Of a stretch of DNA of 16,505 bases, positions 9,511-16,505 are shown piece by piece. The first letter of the stretch is position 1. Each line of letters begins with the position of its first letter. The stretch lies in the UHGV virus genome UHGV-0075529, one strand, 5' to 3'. The notes under the pieces were generated by a model that saw nothing but the letters and a program-made list of their open reading frames with translations, searched no databases and was not told where the DNA came from. The translations under genes and the position numbers were made by a program. This DNA comes from a virus.

Positions 9511-10188
9511 TTATGGGATGTTTAGTATTTTGGCATCAACCACAACGCCGATGATTTTGCAGTTTCCATTAATTTCTAGCATTGGATATGCGGGGTTAAG
9601 GGGCTTTAGGAAGCGTCTGCCGGCATCGATTACAAGCTTCTTAAAGGTCGCTTCGTTATCGCCTTCTAGCTTCGCGACAACCAGCTTTCCGTTGCGCGGC
9701 TCGACTTCAGGATCAACAAGTATCGCTGCTCCCTCGGGTATGCTCAGTCCAGCCGGGGAGGTCATAGAATCCCCTTTAACGTCCAGCCAGAATGAATCTT
9801 CTGAGCAGTCAACAGTCGTGTCATACCAGCGATCTATCGCTCTTCGGTGATAAGGTTCTACAGCTTCCATCCATTGCCCCGCGCTTACCCAGCTGATTAC
9901 AGGATAACTTCCTTTTGTCTCGTTCAGTCCTCGAAATGCAACGTTCGAAGGTTCTTCACTGGCGTGTAAAACATCCATCCAGCCAAAAGGCAGATCAAGC
10001 GCAGTTTCAATTTTGCGAGCCATCTTATCGCCGATATTGCGATGAGGGTTTGGTCCCAGTAGCTGGCTAAGCGCAGCCGGACTTGTCTCGATGAGCTCGG
10101 CAAACTGCGCTTTGGTCATTCCAGACTCGTGCTGACGCTTCTCGTACAGCGCTTCCAGGTTGGCTTTTCTGATTTCTTTATTTTCCAT
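9511..10188 (-). CDS. cI: cI-type prophage repressor (N-terminal HTH, C-terminal S24 LexA-like autopeptidase)
   Basis: Start taken at ATG 10188 (MENKEIRKANLEA...); C-terminal domain has the catalytic Ser in GDSM, a downstream Lys, and an Ala-Gly candidate cleavage site (SWVSAGQW). The ORF track runs to 10305 across the operators. Confidence 0.88.
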   Translation of the reverse strand: MENKEIRKANLEALYEKRQHESGMTKAQFAELIETSPAALSQLLGPNPHRNIGDKMARKIETALDLPFGWMDVLHASEEPSNVAFRGLNETKGSYPVISWVSAGQWMEAVEPYHRRAIDRWYDTTVDCSEDSFWLDVKGDSMTSPAGLSIPEGAAILVDPEVEPRNGKLVVAKLEGDNEATFKKLVIDAGRRFLKPLNPAYPMLEINGNCKIIGVVVDAKILNIP

Positions 10189-10304
10189 ACCTGCATTGTT
10201 ACTGCTTTTAGCAAAATGATAAATATGCAAATTGCTAAATGATGCTTGCGTAGTATTTAGCATAACGCTAAACTCCAAATCAAACGACTCACCCGGAGAC
10301 ACCA
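10189..10304. promoter_or_regulatory. OR operator triplet with divergent PRM/PR promoters
   Basis: 17-bp sites at 10207-10223 (TTTAGC-AAAAT-GATAAA), 10223-10239 (weak) and 10256-10272 (perfect TTTAGC-ATAAC-GCTAAA); PR candidate -35 TTGCGT (10246-10251), 17-bp spacer, -10 TAAACT (10269-10274). Confidence 0.7.
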
Positions 10305-10538
10305 ATGAGCACTGAACTACACCGCTGGCGCAAGGCCGCCACTACCGACGAATGGGCGCAGCTCGCAAAGTTGGCTAACACGACGCCAGGTTACCTGGAC
10401 CAGATCGCCTACGGAAATCGCCGGGCATCTCCAGAAATGGCATCTGCTATCGAGAAAGGCACGAAGAATTTTCACCGCCAGGCTCCGGTCCTAAAAGAAA
10501 GCCTGGTATTCGCATCGCCGCGTGATACTGCGGCCTAA
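10305..10538 (+). CDS. cro: Cro-like / YdaS-family HTH DNA-binding protein
   Basis: 77-aa ORF divergent from cI across the operator region; SD GGAGA 7 nt upstream; HTH-like segment EWAQLAKLANTTPGYLDQIAYGNR. Confidence 0.65.
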   Translation: MSTELHRWRKAATTDEWAQLAKLANTTPGYLDQIAYGNRRASPEMASAIEKGTKNFHRQAPVLKESLVFASPRDTAA

Positions 10539-11211: not shown

Positions 11212-11358
11212 ATGGCAAAAAATCCACGCTATTACCATACCGCTGTACATAAAAACATAACCCGCGACCGCTTCATCCGCTCGGTTAACCCGATTGTGGC
11301 AGAGAAGATGCGCGCCATCCTGGAAGAACTGAAACGTAAGGAGAGTGGCCGTGGGTAA
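11212..11358 (+). CDS. Small hypothetical protein, 48 aa (or 78 aa from ATG 11122)
   Basis: Strong SD AGGAGG 5-6 nt upstream of ATG 11212 (MAKNPRYYHTAVHKNITRDRF...); the ORF track extends to 11119 overlapping the upstream stop. Confidence 0.45.
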   Translation: MAKNPRYYHTAVHKNITRDRFIRSVNPIVAEKMRAILEELKRKESGRG

Positions 11359-12250
11359 CGTATCCAATTTAGCCGAAGCCAGAGAGGCCAGAAGGCTCCA
11401 GAAACCGCGCACGAATGACGGTAAGGGGTTTGCCTTGCTGCACCGTAAAATTATGGATGTGCCGTTCTACAAGGACGCTGAGGCGGCTCATTTATGGGTT
11501 CACCTGCTCCTGCGCGCTAATCATGAACAGACACTGGTATCGACTGATGTCGGCGATGTGATCTGCGAGCGCGGAGAGTTCATTACCGGGCGAAACACGC
11601 TGGCAATGGAAACGGGTTTGACCGCTGATCGCGTTAAATCACTGCTCCGTAAATTCCAGAACCTGGGCATGATCACCACCAAATCGAACAACCGTTTTAC
11701 TGTTCTAAAAGTGGTCAAATATGACGAATATCAGTCAAATTTTTGTCCAGCCGATGTCCAGCCAGTGTCCAGCGCAAACGCAGCTATATCAATGCCTGCG
11801 GAGGCGGAGTGTCCAGCCGATGTCCAGCCAGTGTCCACAGATAACAATATATTAAATAACTTACTACCTAACGGTAGTAAGTATGTCGCAAATGACCAGA
11901 AACCCGCTGAAGAGAAAAAGTCCCGTTTGTCATGCGATGAAGTATGGCAATGCCTGAAAGACGAACTGCCTGAAGCCCGGGGATGGAGATGCCTCACTGA
12001 TGAGCGACGCAATCTGATCCGCACCTTCTGGGGTAAGGCTAACAAAATTGCCCGCAACCTGGACGGCAAGCCGATGGATATGGACGGTTTCAGAAGCTAT
12101 CTGCGCTACATCGCTCAGAACTGCCGCTGGATGCTTGAAGACCGACCAGACCAGAAATCCGGGAAGACCTGGCGCCGCATGAAATTCGATAAGTTCCTGA
12201 CCGAAAAGCTCTACATCGAAGTGCGCGAAGGGGATCGTGATGACCGCTGA
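11345..12250 (+). CDS. Replication initiator / replisome organiser (O-like) with the origin inside the gene
   Basis: 301 aa with N-terminal DNA-binding-like region, a central linker encoded by the iterons (CPADVQPVS twice), and a conserved phage C-terminal domain; sits directly upstream of the helicase. Confidence 0.7.
   Translation: MAVGNVSNLAEAREARRLQKPRTNDGKGFALLHRKIMDVPFYKDAEAAHLWVHLLLRANHEQTLVSTDVGDVICERGEFITGRNTLAMETGLTADRVKSLLRKFQNLGMITTKSNNRFTVLKVVKYDEYQSNFCPADVQPVSSANAAISMPAEAECPADVQPVSTDNNILNNLLPNGSKYVANDQKPAEEKKSRLSCDEVWQCLKDELPEARGWRCLTDERRNLIRTFWGKANKIARNLDGKPMDMDGFRSYLRYIAQNCRWMLEDRPDQKSGKTWRRMKFDKFLTEKLYIEVREGDRDDR
11744..11882. repeat. Candidate replication origin: six phased iterons, AT-rich tract and a 24-bp palindrome
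   Basis: TGTCCAGCC-type 9-mers at 11744, 11755, 11766, 11810, 11821 and 11832 (11-bp spacing; 28-bp perfect direct repeat 11744-11771 = 11810-11837); AT-rich ATAACAATATATTAAATAAC; palindrome ACTTACTACC-TAAC-GGTAGTAAGT (11859-11882). Confidence 0.6.
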
Positions 12251-13673
12251 TTTCATGGCTGTACCACAAAACCTCGAAGCAGAGCAGAGCGTTATCGGTG
12301 GCCTGCTGCTGGATGATGACAACAGCGAGCGAGTCCAGAAGGTTCTGGCGATGCTCAAGCCTGAGTCGTTCTACAGCCGACCTCACCAGCTGATCTTTGC
12401 CGAGATGCGCCAGATGTTCCGCGACAACAAGCCAGTCGATGGTCTGACATTGTTCGACGCGCTCGAAGGCAAAGGGCTCGCTGAGCAGGTGGGTGGCTTT
12501 GCTTACCTTGCGGAGATCGCCAAGAACACTCCCAGCGCTGCAAACATCGTAGCTTACGCAGCATCAGTCCGGGAAGCCGCAATGGAGCGCTACGGTATCA
12601 ACCGCCTGACCGAAGCTACTGAGCTGCTGTATTCCCGTAACGGCATGAGCGCTACGCAGAAGTACGAGGCCATTCAGGGTATTTTCACCCAGCTCGCAGA
12701 CCATTCAAAAACCGGTAGTCGCCGTGGGTTGCGGTCGTTCGGCGAGGTTATGGATGACTGGGTAGCAGATCTGGAGAAACGCTTTGACCCTTCAGGCGAA
12801 CAGCGCGGCATGAGCACCGGCATCCCGTCACTCGACCGGCTGCTGGCGCCGAAAGGTCTGGTTAAAGGCTCTCTGTTCGTGATTGGCGCAAGGCCAAAGA
12901 TGGGCAAGACAACCCTGTACGGTCAGATGGCGATCAACTGCGCGGTTCGTGAGAAAAAGCCAGCGCTGATGTTCAGCCTCGAAATGCCGGGCGACCAGAT
13001 CCTCGAAAAACTGGTTGGTCAGAAGTCTGGAGTTAACCCGAGCATTTTTTACATGCCAGCCACGGATGACGCCGATGACCAGTACCAGGGCGATTACGAC
13101 GGCGACTTTAAGAAGGCGATCGCCACCGCCGGGCGATTGAGTGAAATCGACATGCTGTACATCGACGATACTCCTGGCCTGTCACTGGCGCACATCGTTA
13201 GCGAAAGCCGCCGAATCAAGCGCGAGAAGGGCTGCGTAGGAATGATTTTGGTTGACTACCTGACTCTGATGACCGCCGAAAAAGCCGACCGTAATGACCT
13301 TGCCTACGGGATGATCACCAAAGGGTTGAAGAACCTCGCTAAAGAGCTTGGCTGCGTCGTCGTGCTGCTGACCCAGCTCAACCGCGAACTGGAGAAGCGA
13401 GTGAATAAACGCCCGTTACCGAGCGATTCCCGCGACACAGGACAGATTGAGCAGGACTGCGACTACTGGGTTGGTATCCACCGGGAAGGTGCTTTCGATG
13501 ATAGCGTGCCGCCGGGAGAAACCGAGTTAATCCTGCGACTCAATCGCCACGGCAGTACCGGAACGGTTTATTGCAATCAGATCAACGGGGCAATTTACGA
13601 CACAGACCAGCAGGCCGCCGCCGCAGAACGACGCGGGCGTGAGCAGCAGCCGAAAAAGAAAGGGGGATTCTGA
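12240..13673 (+). CDS. Replicative DNA helicase, DnaB family (phage-encoded)
   Basis: DnaB N-terminal signature AVPQNLEAEQSVIGGLLLD...FYSRPHQLIF...GGFAYLAEIAKNTPSAANI and Walker A GARPKMGKTT; ATG at 12240 with SD AAGGGGA. Confidence 0.9.
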   Translation: MTADFMAVPQNLEAEQSVIGGLLLDDDNSERVQKVLAMLKPESFYSRPHQLIFAEMRQMFRDNKPVDGLTLFDALEGKGLAEQVGGFAYLAEIAKNTPSAANIVAYAASVREAAMERYGINRLTEATELLYSRNGMSATQKYEAIQGIFTQLADHSKTGSRRGLRSFGEVMDDWVADLEKRFDPSGEQRGMSTGIPSLDRLLAPKGLVKGSLFVIGARPKMGKTTLYGQMAINCAVREKKPALMFSLEMPGDQILEKLVGQKSGVNPSIFYMPATDDADDQYQGDYDGDFKKAIATAGRLSEIDMLYIDDTPGLSLAHIVSESRRIKREKGCVGMILVDYLTLMTAEKADRNDLAYGMITKGLKNLAKELGCVVVLLTQLNRELEKRVNKRPLPSDSRDTGQIEQDCDYWVGIHREGAFDDSVPPGETELILRLNRHGSTGTVYCNQINGAIYDTDQQAAAAERRGREQQPKKKGGF

Positions 13674-14211: not shown

Positions 14212-14597
14212 GCAACATCGACAAACGTGGATTACGTGAAGCAGCGGAGAAGGCGACGAAATGCCGGTGGGCTGTTGAGTTCGACGATGAGATTTACTCC
14301 ACTGACGGCGTGAACCATGAGCAAATAGCCATGGTATTCAGTGAAAACGAAGCGCGTGATGCTGCATTTATCGCCGCAGCCAACCCCGCCACCGTGCTGG
14401 CGCTGCTGGATGAGCTGGAAGCCGCAGAGAAGCGAATCGCTGAACTGGAAGCGAAGCTCGATAGCGCAGATAAATTGCAAGATAGCGCATTTCGTCATGG
14501 TCTTCAGCATGGCTTCAGTTTTGGTCAAACGGATAATCAGGCTGGATTTGAAGAGTGCTTATCTGCATATGGAGCGCGGGGTAAAGATAATGGCTAA
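14208..14597 (+). CDS. Ead/Ea22-like family protein
   Basis: 129 aa; N-terminal KRGLREAAEKATK and ATVLALLDELEAAEKRIAELEAKL are typical of Ead/Ea22-like proteins as recalled; ATGA overlap to the upstream gene. Confidence 0.65.
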   Translation: MSNIDKRGLREAAEKATKCRWAVEFDDEIYSTDGVNHEQIAMVFSENEARDAAFIAAANPATVLALLDELEAAEKRIAELEAKLDSADKLQDSAFRHGLQHGFSFGQTDNQAGFEECLSAYGARGKDNG

Positions 14598-14790
14598 TTC
14601 ATTACTTGAAACATGCAATGACTGGCAAATTCTTCGCGCAGAAATATTGGCTCGAAATCCAAATATGGCCATGATACTTCAAAAGCTCGACATCATGATT
14701 GAGCATTCCGTTAGGGCGGCAATTGAAATATCGCATCGTGTTGACTGGGATTTTAGTGAAGCAGAGCGTAAAGCTAAGGCGGTGAATTAA
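14590..14790 (+). CDS. Hypothetical phage protein, 66 aa
   Basis: ATG 14590 overlaps the end of the upstream gene by 8 nt; the ORF track extends to 14341, overlapping the Ead-like gene. Confidence 0.45.
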   Translation: MANSLLETCNDWQILRAEILARNPNMAMILQKLDIMIEHSVRAAIEISHRVDWDFSEAERKAKAVN

Positions 14791-15587
14791 TGGAACTTTC
14801 ACGGGATAAGATTAAAGAAATAATCAATGACGATTGGCTTTTGATGGATGATTGCGAAGGAAATAAAAACTGTGACGTTGTCAAAGAGATGGCGCGTATA
14901 GCGCTGGCATCGCTCGAAGCGGAGCCTGCCATTCACCGGTGGCGTCGTGTGACCTCTGAGCCATACGGCCCCTATCCTTGGCATTATGGTGATTTTATCG
15001 GCTTCTCAAAGCCCGTTGATGGGATTGAGGATGAGTATTTTTACTCCGCCCCGCCAGAGCCAGCCAATGCCGAAACCGTAGCCTGGCTGTGGTCACACAG
15101 GAAACACCCGAGCGAAGTCACGCTTGTTCGCCCTGAAGATGATGAGAGAGCGGAGGGTGCTCACTGGTCTGGCTGGAGTTGTCAGGCGCTTTATGCAGCA
15201 CCGCCAGTTCCGGTATCTGTGCCCACATTCGAGAAATGGTGTGAGTTGACTGAGCAGAAACCTGTCGGATGGGTGCGTGATGCTATGAAAGAAGCGTATG
15301 ACGGATGCCGCGACGCCATGCTTCAGGGTGCCGAAAAAGCCGAGTCGCCCACCACCATGCAGACCGCGCCAGCCCTAGATTCTTCGCCAAAAATTTCCGA
15401 GTCGCCCGTCAGCAACTCTCCGGTGATTCCGGATGGTTGGGTGCTGGTTCCTAAGGAGCCAACTCCAGAAATGCGTGAGGCGTACCATCAGGCGCAGGAA
15501 GAGTGTGAAGATGGCGGTAGATTATGGAGCCCAGACCACCAATGGAAGGCCATGATCGCAGCAGCACCGCAGCAGGAGGCGAAGTGA
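14790..15587 (+). CDS. Hypothetical phage protein, 265 aa, with an internally repeated motif
   Basis: ATG overlaps the upstream stop (TAATG); internal repeat GWVRDAMKEAYDGCRDAM versus GWVLVPKEPTPEMREAYHQAQ; no catalytic motif recognised. Confidence 0.65.
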   Translation: MELSRDKIKEIINDDWLLMDDCEGNKNCDVVKEMARIALASLEAEPAIHRWRRVTSEPYGPYPWHYGDFIGFSKPVDGIEDEYFYSAPPEPANAETVAWLWSHRKHPSEVTLVRPEDDERAEGAHWSGWSCQALYAAPPVPVSVPTFEKWCELTEQKPVGWVRDAMKEAYDGCRDAMLQGAEKAESPTTMQTAPALDSSPKISESPVSNSPVIPDGWVLVPKEPTPEMREAYHQAQEECEDGGRLWSPDHQWKAMIAAAPQQEAK

Positions 15588-15833: not shown

Positions 15834-15856
15834 CGCGGAAACTTTGAAGGTATAAT

Positions 15857-15882
15857 CCCCTCAAATAATCGAGGGGGTTTTT
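15857..15882 (+). terminator. Intrinsic terminator (plus strand) whose 3' stem half doubles as the SD of the next gene
   Basis: Stem CCCCTC (15857-15862) / GAGGGG (15871-15876), loop AAATAATC, then TTTTT (15878-15882) abutting ATG 15883. Confidence 0.6.
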
Positions 15883-16455
15883 ATGTCTGGTTGGGATAAC
15901 GGTATAGATGCAGTTTCTGCGATTGCAGCTATCGCATATGGAAACTCCGTCTATGTAGAATTTGACCGCGAAGCACAATCACTTGATGCAGCTATCGCAT
16001 CTGCGGTAGCAACTTATTTAGCATGGCGATCCTCAGAAGCTAGCAGGGCCACATCCGAAAAAGCTTTGCAGTTGCAAGGAAAGCAGTATTTGTACGAGAC
16101 ATTAAAAGCTTGCGCTGAGAGAGCGAATTCATACTCAAAAGGAAAGAAAGGGGCTGACTGGAGCTTTCATGACGCAGCCAATATTGTTCGATGTTTGAAC
16201 ATGGCAATGGGGAGCATAATAAATTACTCAGATACCAACAATCAGGATGCAATGAAAGGTCTGAAGCAATTCTTTATTAGCCAATTAAACATGGAGCTTT
16301 TTGAAGAGCTCAACTATGAGGTTGGGCCTGATGCCTTCTTTCACGGAGAGGAGCTAACCAGCATGACGAGCGATATTTACTCGCAGTGGTTAAACATTAT
16401 TTCATTCTTTAACCTCATGATTGTCACAGATGATGACCTCGCCGATGAAACATAG
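15883..16455 (+). CDS. Hypothetical protein, 190 aa, in a visibly AT-richer segment (candidate moron / accessory gene)
   Basis: Clean ORF starting right after a terminator; lower GC by eye than the replication genes; acidic C-terminus (TDDDLADET); no motif recognised. Confidence 0.65.
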   Translation: MSGWDNGIDAVSAIAAIAYGNSVYVEFDREAQSLDAAIASAVATYLAWRSSEASRATSEKALQLQGKQYLYETLKACAERANSYSKGKKGADWSFHDAANIVRCLNMAMGSIINYSDTNNQDAMKGLKQFFISQLNMELFEELNYEVGPDAFFHGEELTSMTSDIYSQWLNIISFFNLMIVTDDDLADET

Positions 16456-16505
16456 CTTGATTGATTTTCCATAATCAACCCGCCATAATCATGTCATCGG
16501 AGCCT

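Follow-up and report, generated by a model that had tools for sequence, protein, structure and literature searches.

The DNA analysed here, called the window in the following, comprises 16,505 nt of the virus genome UHGV-0075529 and represents the early region of a lambdoid prophage, with a conserved cassette at the entrance to the nin region reached by its last nucleotides. It contains genes for an integrase, an S24/HTH repressor, an initiator protein with TGTCCAGCC iterons in its gene and a DnaB-type helicase, as well as an Ead/Ea22-like gene and other ORFs. Over its last 1.6 kb, right up to the final base, the window shares 99.9% identity with prophages of many E. coli chromosomes. Sequence past position 16505 was read from such proxies and not from the window itself, using the prophage of E. 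coli QDFD216 (L001), in which a window position equals the L001 position plus 8956. In QDFD216, the sequence continues with a 33-aa ORF, ybcN (NinB/Orf family), ninE, ybcO, rusA, ylcG and quuD, which codes for a Q homologue. Six loci match the last 100 nt of the window exactly, and these are also identical for the next 45 nt. The features needed for the argument are the following:

742-1932: integrase
9511-10305, minus strand: S24/HTH repressor
15883-16455, plus strand: ORF of 190 aa with stop codon TAG at 16453-16455, the left neighbour of the cassette and outside of it
16456-16460, no strand: mosaic joint; homology to other cassette-bearing phages and prophages starts directly to its right
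16461-16466, plus strand: -35 hexamer TTGATT from the promoter scan, homologous to the 'minus_35_signal, putative' of the phage 82 record X92588
16484-16489, plus strand: -10 hexamer CATAAT from the promoter scan, homologous to the 'minus_10_signal, putative' of X92588
16461-16478, no strand: palindrome TTGATT-N6-AATCAA, a possible operator spanning the -35 hexamer and the spacer
16496, plus strand: predicted transcription start, an A in seventh position after the -10 hexamer and preceded by C
16493-16505, plus strand: left arm of hairpin HP1 (GTCATCGGAG, 16493-16502) and the loop bases CCT, cut by the window edge

Some further features lie elsewhere in the window. Six TGTCCAGCC-like iterons with 11-bp spacing are present at 11733-11837, grouped in clusters at 11744-11771 and 11810-11837 that repeat a 28-nt block exactly. 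They are located inside a 301-aa ORF (11345-12250) just upstream of the DnaB-type helicase gene (12237-13673), and they very probably represent the phage replication origin, which would lie within its initiator gene. The stretch from 14500 to 14926 is 99.5% identical to phage HK140, where it covers three hypothetical genes, and its flanks match other phages, another instance of how finely mosaic this prophage is. The 190-aa ORF next to the cassette has no match in Pfam or NCBIfam and is annotated as 'hypothetical protein' in QDFD216. Its ATG at 15883 follows 3 nt after a terminator-like hairpin (AATCCCCTCAAATAATCGAGGGGGTT, then TTTATG; 15854-15879). Inside this ORF (15925-15999), 63 nt corresponding to 21 codons are absent from the otherwise 99.9% identical QDFD216 prophage, and a 12-bp direct repeat, GCAGCTATCGCA, flanks it at 15925-15936 and 15988-15999. 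A stretch of 75 nt overlapping this segment (15933-16007) recurs with 100% identity in the 108-kb phage Cyrano, within a gene labelled 'putative antitoxin HicB'.

In lambdoid prophages of the phage-82/DLP12 type, the left nin border is formed by a conserved non-coding cassette, and the window closes with the first 45 nt of it, its 5' end. BLAST matches to phages begin at the window equivalent of 16461, and 17 unrelated upstream sequences join the same conserved block at TTGATT among the first 80 loci. The sample consisted of 238 loci retrieved with three ybcN/NinB queries and 26 more from a genome scan, and the cassette was present in 151 of the 185 distinct upstream regions. Conserved within the block are TTGATT, AATCAA, CATAAT and the hairpin arms, with variable bases in between. 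Relatives of the segment were found in 3018 of 5426 complete E. coli genomes, and relatives of the cassette occur in prophages of Enterobacter, Citrobacter, Klebsiella, Leclercia and other Enterobacteriaceae.

Scanning for promoters yielded TTGATT-17-CATAAT in both the window and the proxy, with 9 of 12 matches to the sigma-70 consensus. The hexamers are moderate (4/6 and 5/6), two such sites are expected by chance per 700 bp, and two possibly incomplete E. coli TSS resources list no mapped transcription start here; these points were counted against reading the site as a promoter. Conservation across the variants is much stronger evidence than the scan call, such calls being common by chance. 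The best promoter score has a mean of 9.2 over the 151 distinct variants versus 6.8 in shuffles, and scores of at least 9.5 are reached by 60% of the variants versus 2% of the shuffles. TTGNNN and the 17-bp spacer are present in nearly all 151 variants, while NATAAT is near-invariant and is extended to TGnTATAAT in some of them. Cassettes of the Klebsiella type carry TTGCTT-17-GATAAT within otherwise unrelated sequence, and the distance from the -10 hexamer to the HP1 loop stays constant at 13-17 nt across the variants. Of 75 distinct variants, 72 have a purine as the seventh nucleotide after the -10 hexamer; a pyrimidine precedes this nucleotide in 65 of them, and in 68 it is paired at the foot of HP1. 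Judged from these patterns, the last stretch of the window very probably serves as a promoter region for the downstream genes, and to this extent the original prediction, which had suggested the promoter region of the next gene as a possibility, is supported.

The palindrome in the spacer ends in the tail of the first copy of the 9-mer CCATAATCA (see below), which forms its right arm. Both arms are conserved in homologous loci while the central 6 nt vary, phi80 and HK225 show the symmetric change TTGATA-N6-TATCAA, and TTGA-N10-TCAA is present in 76 of the 151 variants. A site for a dimeric protein, overlapping the -35 hexamer, would show such a pattern, and the palindrome could be an operator. 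Klebsiella-type cassettes (e.g., L092-L160) contain another palindrome, TATCCCCG-N3-CGGGCGATA, between TTGCTT and GATAAT, in a position matching that of the E. coli-type TTGATT-N6-AATCAA. The sites of some well-known regulators were also considered. An FNR box consists of the half-sites TTGAT/ATCAA at a spacing of N4; both half-sites are matched here, but with a spacing of N8, for which reason an FNR box was rejected. The consensus for IHF is unmatched. The likeness to a Fur box is partial and confined to some variants.

The second inverted repeat, HP1, begins inside the window and continues in the six exact-match loci with the loop CCTGAACAA and the right arm CTCCGGTGAC; it is homologous to the repeat_region of X92588 annotated as a 'possible regulator-binding site'. 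HP1 occurs in 53 versions, which comprise about a dozen unrelated stems (for example, GTCAYCGGAG/CTCCGGTGAC, TCTGCCAGCGG/CCCTGGCAGA, GTCAG/CTGAC, TTGCTGATGG/CCATTGGTGA and CCATGCAG/CTGCATGG) and a single loop motif, YCUGAACAM, with a 9-nt loop CCUGAACAA. With 61 distinct sequences aligned on the loop without gaps, 88% of the cells pair versus 57% in shuffles, and the covariation score amounts to 0.82, compared to 0.25 after shuffling and at most 0.37 in slid controls. Pairing is better on the plus strand (88%) than on the minus strand (78%), with many T.G pairs. Because the loop is kept while the arms vary freely, which is the opposite of a classical operator, this indicates that HP1 is an RNA hairpin read through its loop. 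Within the window, no HP1-type hairpin was found elsewhere than at this slot. Two IMG/VR contigs (L202 and L208) carry two to three tandem hairpins in place of HP1, about 130-200 nt upstream of ninB, which have unrelated stems and each display a loop of the CUGAACAA or CCGAACAG type.

These data bear on the view that the cassette is made up of DNA operators, in which GTCAYCGGAG-N9-CTCCGGTGAC and/or TTGATT-N6-AATCAA would bind a dimeric repressor of the promoter. The depositors of X92588 thought of a regulator-binding site, the stem of HP1 frequently reaches back beyond the predicted +1, and the spacer palindrome behaves as a dimer site would, with its arms kept, its centre variable, a symmetric change in phi80 (TTGATA/TATCAA) and a different palindrome in the same spacer of the Klebsiella-type cassettes. 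The behaviour of HP1 is the reverse of that of an operator, since its arms change completely among the 53 versions and its centre is conserved; moreover, its complementarity is maintained through the T.G pairs in favour of the plus-strand transcript, the tandem hairpins of L202 and L208 share the same loop, and no candidate regulator travels with the cassette. We consider operators unlikely as the explanation of the whole, although the part that concerns the spacer palindrome is compatible with the reading preferred below.

Beyond the window edge, the proxies continue with a second hairpin, HP2, and a leader ORF of 33 codons (orf33/ylcH), whose start would lie some 40 nt outside the window (window equivalent 16545) and which is followed by the start of ybcN/ninB at about 16643. 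For HP2, some nine mutually unrelated stems were distinguished, with lengths of 10-13 bp, energies of -13 to -16 kcal/mol and the loop GGGA; the AUG of the leader ORF is always in the 3' arm, and the Shine-Dalgarno sequence GGGGA occupies the loop and its immediate surroundings. The HP2 positions are paired to 93% versus 58% in shuffles, and 10 out of 10 pairs have changed on both sides, values that carry some selection bias from picking the segments by folding. The element annotated as 'IR4' in phi80 is the HP2 of that phage. The leader ORF, mostly 31-33 codons long but with 40 codons in a few cases, stays open in 148 of the 151 variants and ends with a stop codon overlapping the ninB start (GTGA/ATGA). 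Its peptide changes wherever the stems covary, e.g., from SQMQKCTC to SPMAKATG, which suggests that the act of translation matters and not the encoded peptide. No runs of regulatory codons were seen in the leader ORF and no alternative antiterminator pairing is evident in the leader.

A third hairpin, HP3, is located inside the leader ORF (UCACAGAUGCA-GAAA-UGCACCUGCGA, followed by a U-run; L001 7621-7649, window equivalent 16577-16605). It is G+C-rich and, together with the U-run, has the features of an intrinsic terminator according to the terminator scan, and three of its pairs show compensatory changes in RNAalifold. The U-run varies even among the six exact-match proxies. HP3 contains two strictly conserved A.C mismatches, at least one of which could be closed by a synonymous change; the minus strand reads G.U at these positions. 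An alternative fold, in which an A-rich arm pairs with the U-run, appears in single-sequence folds only and has no covariation support. Because the spacing at HP2 differs by cassette type, the hairpins were scored separately and not with a single covariance model of the whole leader. Covariance searches of Rfam 15 with five locus variants (L001, L003, L085, L086 and L091) gave no relevant match at E <= 1. Two short motifs recur in the leaders: CUGAAC is repeated in the single-stranded linker between HP2 and HP3 of phi80-type leaders, and UUCUGCG follows both HP1 (CUUCUGCGC) and HP3 (AUUCUGCG), as seen at L001 7546-7554 and 7652-7658 and in phi80 (L085) at 1550-1558.

An RNA of the opposite strand was also considered. 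The plus-strand fold of the whole leader reaches -32.9 kcal/mol (z = -2.95), the single-sequence fold of the minus strand is stronger (-43.1 kcal/mol, z = -4.0), and HP3 pairs better on the minus strand (94% versus 79%). A minus-strand RNA was not adopted because the covariation of HP1 and HP2, the U-run, the layout of Shine-Dalgarno sequence, AUG and ORF, and the RNA 3' end described next all belong to the plus strand; the promoter scan returned no promoter on the minus strand.

In E. coli MG1655, Term-seq places an RNA 3' end at 572349(+), directly after ...CTCCGGTGACTTCTG and 4-5 nt past the right arm of HP1, with low abundance (1584 reads) and in the class 'orphan' (PMC7815308). This end falls inside the first UUCUGCG copy, between CUUCUG and CGC. 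No U-run follows HP1, since the 10-bp stem is succeeded by CUUCUG, and the terminator scan gives no call. The transcripts ending here could have started upstream (at ybcM in K-12), and the end could have arisen from exonuclease trimming instead of termination. In many variants, the HP1 stem reaches upstream of the predicted +1 and attains 10-14 bp, which suits transcripts arriving from upstream. One alternative is that the early rightward operon simply has HP1, and HP3 with it, as its equivalents of the terminator tR2, the promoter-like hexamers being vestiges or incidental. Lambda has tR2 in the same slot, the K-12 RNA ends just past HP1, the full stem exists only in transcripts started upstream, and the two TSS resources, incomplete as they may be, list no start. 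This reading is improbable to us in view of the -35/17/-10 geometry and the fixed hairpin distance, which are kept in unrelated sequence and include a consensus extended -10, and of the pyrimidine-purine step that 65 of 75 variants have at the predicted +1. In addition, a plain terminator needs no conserved loop, and HP1 lacks a U-run.

Still less probable is a small-RNA gene, which would produce either a trans-acting RNA of about 115 nt, from the promoter through HP3, or an HP1 RNA of about 30 nt, with the HP1 loop as seed or recognition element. The cassette has the makings of such a gene, namely a promoter-like site of its own, three stem-loops of which the terminal one has a U-run, a YUNR-type CUGA in the conserved loop and a short RNA 3' end in vivo; the dual-function IsrK RNA of Gifsy-1 has a similar arrangement. 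However, 148 of 151 variants keep the leader ORF open and coupled to ninB, which argues for a role in cis, no Rfam family matches, there is no known target, and the element is absent from the prophage small RNAs of the 2026 Pas sRNA survey, which are located near Q and holin. The prophage small RNAs Pas, AgvB, AsxR and STnc100 were rejected as relatives; they lie near Q, holin and lysozyme genes, and no Rfam match was obtained here.

The feature that first drew attention to the window edge was a tandem repeat followed by an ATG. The 9-mer CCATAATCA occurs exactly twice in the window, on the plus strand at 16469-16477 and 16483-16491, 3 and 2 nt below the positions first assigned to the two copies (16472-16480 and 16485-16493), and the copies are 14 nt apart from start to start, with a gap of 5 nt, instead of the 13 bp initially given. 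A CATAAT inside each copy was correctly recognised (16470-16475 and 16484-16489). The window ends with ...ACATAGCTTGATTGATTTTCCATAATCAACCCGCCATAATCATGTCATCGGAGCCT, and the ATG placed at 16495 is actually found at 16491-16493 on the plus strand, overlapping the last A of the second copy. By chance, CCATAATCA is expected 0.14 times per window and 1 of 200 shuffles reached two copies, a figure that applies to a word chosen post hoc. Counting all non-trivial direct repeats of 9 nt whose copies lie 9-20 bp apart, 0.94 are expected per window, the window has 4, and at least one occurs in 52% of dinucleotide shuffles; as a repeat, CCATAATCA is within chance expectation.

Two exact copies are present in just 9 of the 151 distinct homologous variants. 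The CATAAT of the first copy is variable in homologues, which show GCGATAAT, CCAATAAT, TCAACAAT or GGGAAAT and keep only the tail AATCA(A), and the second copy, which holds the -10 hexamer, varies in its final CA. Across the 151 variants, each copy is conserved over a different part, unlike iteron-like direct repeats, whose unit would be kept as a whole. A tandem repeat acting as a functional unit, be it an iteron or a double -10 box, fails on both the chance expectation and the lack of conservation, and this part of the promoter proposal had to be given up: the repeat at the window edge is a chance composite of two genuine signals, the right arm of the palindrome (AATCA) and the -10 hexamer (CATAAT).

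The idea that a gene begins at the ATG, which does stand after a -10-like box, can practically be dismissed, because its frame in the extension reads ATG TCA TCG GAG CCT GAA CAA CTC CGG TGA, i.e., 9 codons, in all six loci containing the last 100 nt of the window exactly, so that it is already refuted unless the genome of the window differs from all six proxies, and because the ATG has no Shine-Dalgarno sequence in front and is missing in 107 of 151 variants. It also lies upstream of the predicted +1 at 16496.

Taken together, the reading we favour, with a probability of about 0.6, is that the nin and Q genes are preceded by an internal promoter and an attenuating leader. The cassette would consist of a sigma-70 promoter with its palindrome, HP1, HP2 and the terminator HP3 within the leader ORF, whose stop overlaps the ybcN/ninB start, followed by the genes ybcN/ninB, ninE, ybcO, rusA, ylcG and that for the Q antiterminator. 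Transcription would start at about 16496 at the foot of HP1, making HP1 the 5'-terminal structure of the RNA, and HP1 would be responsible for the RNA 3' end just downstream in vivo. Most transcripts from this promoter would end in the leader, at HP1 and/or HP3. HP2 would limit initiation at the leader ORF by burying the AUG in its 3' arm, and HP3 would act as a terminator except on N-modified polymerase, such as arrives from pR in lytic growth, or when opened by a ribosome on the leader ORF. Translation of ninB would be coupled to that of the leader ORF. Of this picture, the anatomy of the sequence, its conservation and covariation and the K-12 RNA 3' end past HP1 are observations, whereas the activity and start site of the promoter, the attenuation and any part played by leader translation are inferred. 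The rusA gene of K-12 is said to have been found poorly expressed from its native context by Mahdi et al. in 1996; any promoter here would accordingly drive no strong distal expression, which fits attenuation and would also fit a weak or silent promoter.

Located directly upstream of the genes leading to Q, the switch for the phage late genes, such a leader would bear on basal nin expression in lysogens, on spontaneous expression of late genes and on why rusA of K-12 is silent unless activated. Annotation of the promoter is old, but only fragments of the cassette are annotated: in phage 82 a putative promoter together with an inverted repeat, and in phi80 the element IR4. A previous description of the three-hairpin leader with its covariation seems to be lacking. 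More tentatively, and with clearly less confidence than in the attenuating leader, we suggest that the cassettes may form an undescribed family of cis-regulatory phage RNAs ('nin leader'), in which the invariant CUGAACA loop of HP1 would be recognised by a protein or RNA partner that sets transcription from an internal, repressor-independent promoter into ninB, rusA and Q. This would provide a second route besides pR and N to the expression of late genes and, in some prophages, of toxins; a small RNA expressed from the prophage would be the other possible form of this idea.

Regarding known systems, several partial resemblances exist. The boxB hairpins are likewise short phage RNA hairpins with a conserved purine-rich loop (lambda GAAAA and P22 GACAA vs. 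CCUGAACAA), but prophages that differ in their immunity and N modules share one and the same HP1 loop. A nut site (boxA/boxB) was rejected, since the HP1 loop has 9 nt and is not a 5-nt GNRA-like loop, a boxA is missing, and the position is in the nin region and not after pL or pR. The HusR (YnfL) site near rusA (PMC12844172) is a different site inside ybcO. Like the pR'-6S RNA/tR' module of lambda, the cassette combines a promoter with a hairpin and an RNA 3' end within about 30 nt, but it contains neither a Q-binding element nor a pause signal and gives no sign of antitermination here. A hairpin beginning at the predicted +1 without an unpaired 5' tail is also known from 5' stabilisers of the ompA type. 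The attenuators of trp, his and pyrBI have in common with the cassette a short leader ORF with a terminator within or after it and a downstream gene for which expression would depend on the position of the ribosome; they differ in that the terminator of the cassette lies inside the ORF and the leader AUG is sequestered in HP2.

With respect to its position, the cassette corresponds to tR2 of lambda, which occupies the same slot immediately upstream of a NinB-family gene at the nin start. Lambda tR2 is an intrinsic terminator that N-modified polymerase must read through. The interval between ren and ninB of lambda contains only tR2 (AGGCCTGC...GCAGGCCTTTTTATTT), a single canonical hairpin with a U-run, and shows no promoter-like site, leader ORF or sequence similarity to the cassette, in contrast to three hairpins and a terminator inside a leader ORF in the latter. 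The cassette is thus the tR2-slot module of nin regions of the phage-82 type, with a putative promoter, a hairpin with a specific loop and a leader ORF as additions.

The closest known counterpart is phage 82 itself, represented by the GenBank record X92588 (2.3 kb; 'orf33, orf151, orf56, orf96, rus, orf45 and Q'). The window proxy is 90.6% identical to this entry over 256 nt, from the cassette start into ybcN/orf151, and DLP12 of K-12 is identical to phage 82 in this region, upstream of ylcH-ybcN. Phage 82 and DLP12 (X92588; Mahdi, Sharples, Mandal and Lloyd 1996) share with the window the same TTGATT, 17-bp spacer and CATAAT, the same inverted repeat with loop CCTGAACAA, the 33-codon ORF and the order of the downstream genes, and the putative -35 and -10 signals annotated in X92588 are in register with ours. 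The arm of the inverted repeat reads GTCACCGGAG in phage 82, where the annotated element is GTCACCGGAG-N9-CTCCGGTGAC, and GTCATCGGAG in the window, which results in a T.G pair. The spacers also differ (GGGAAATCAA in phage 82, CCATAATCAA / TCCATAATCAA in the window), and it is this difference that creates the CCATAATCA repeat of the window, the first CATAAT being absent in phage 82. While the annotation of 1996 termed the promoter signals 'putative' and took the inverted repeat for a protein site, the covariation observed here argues for an RNA hairpin.
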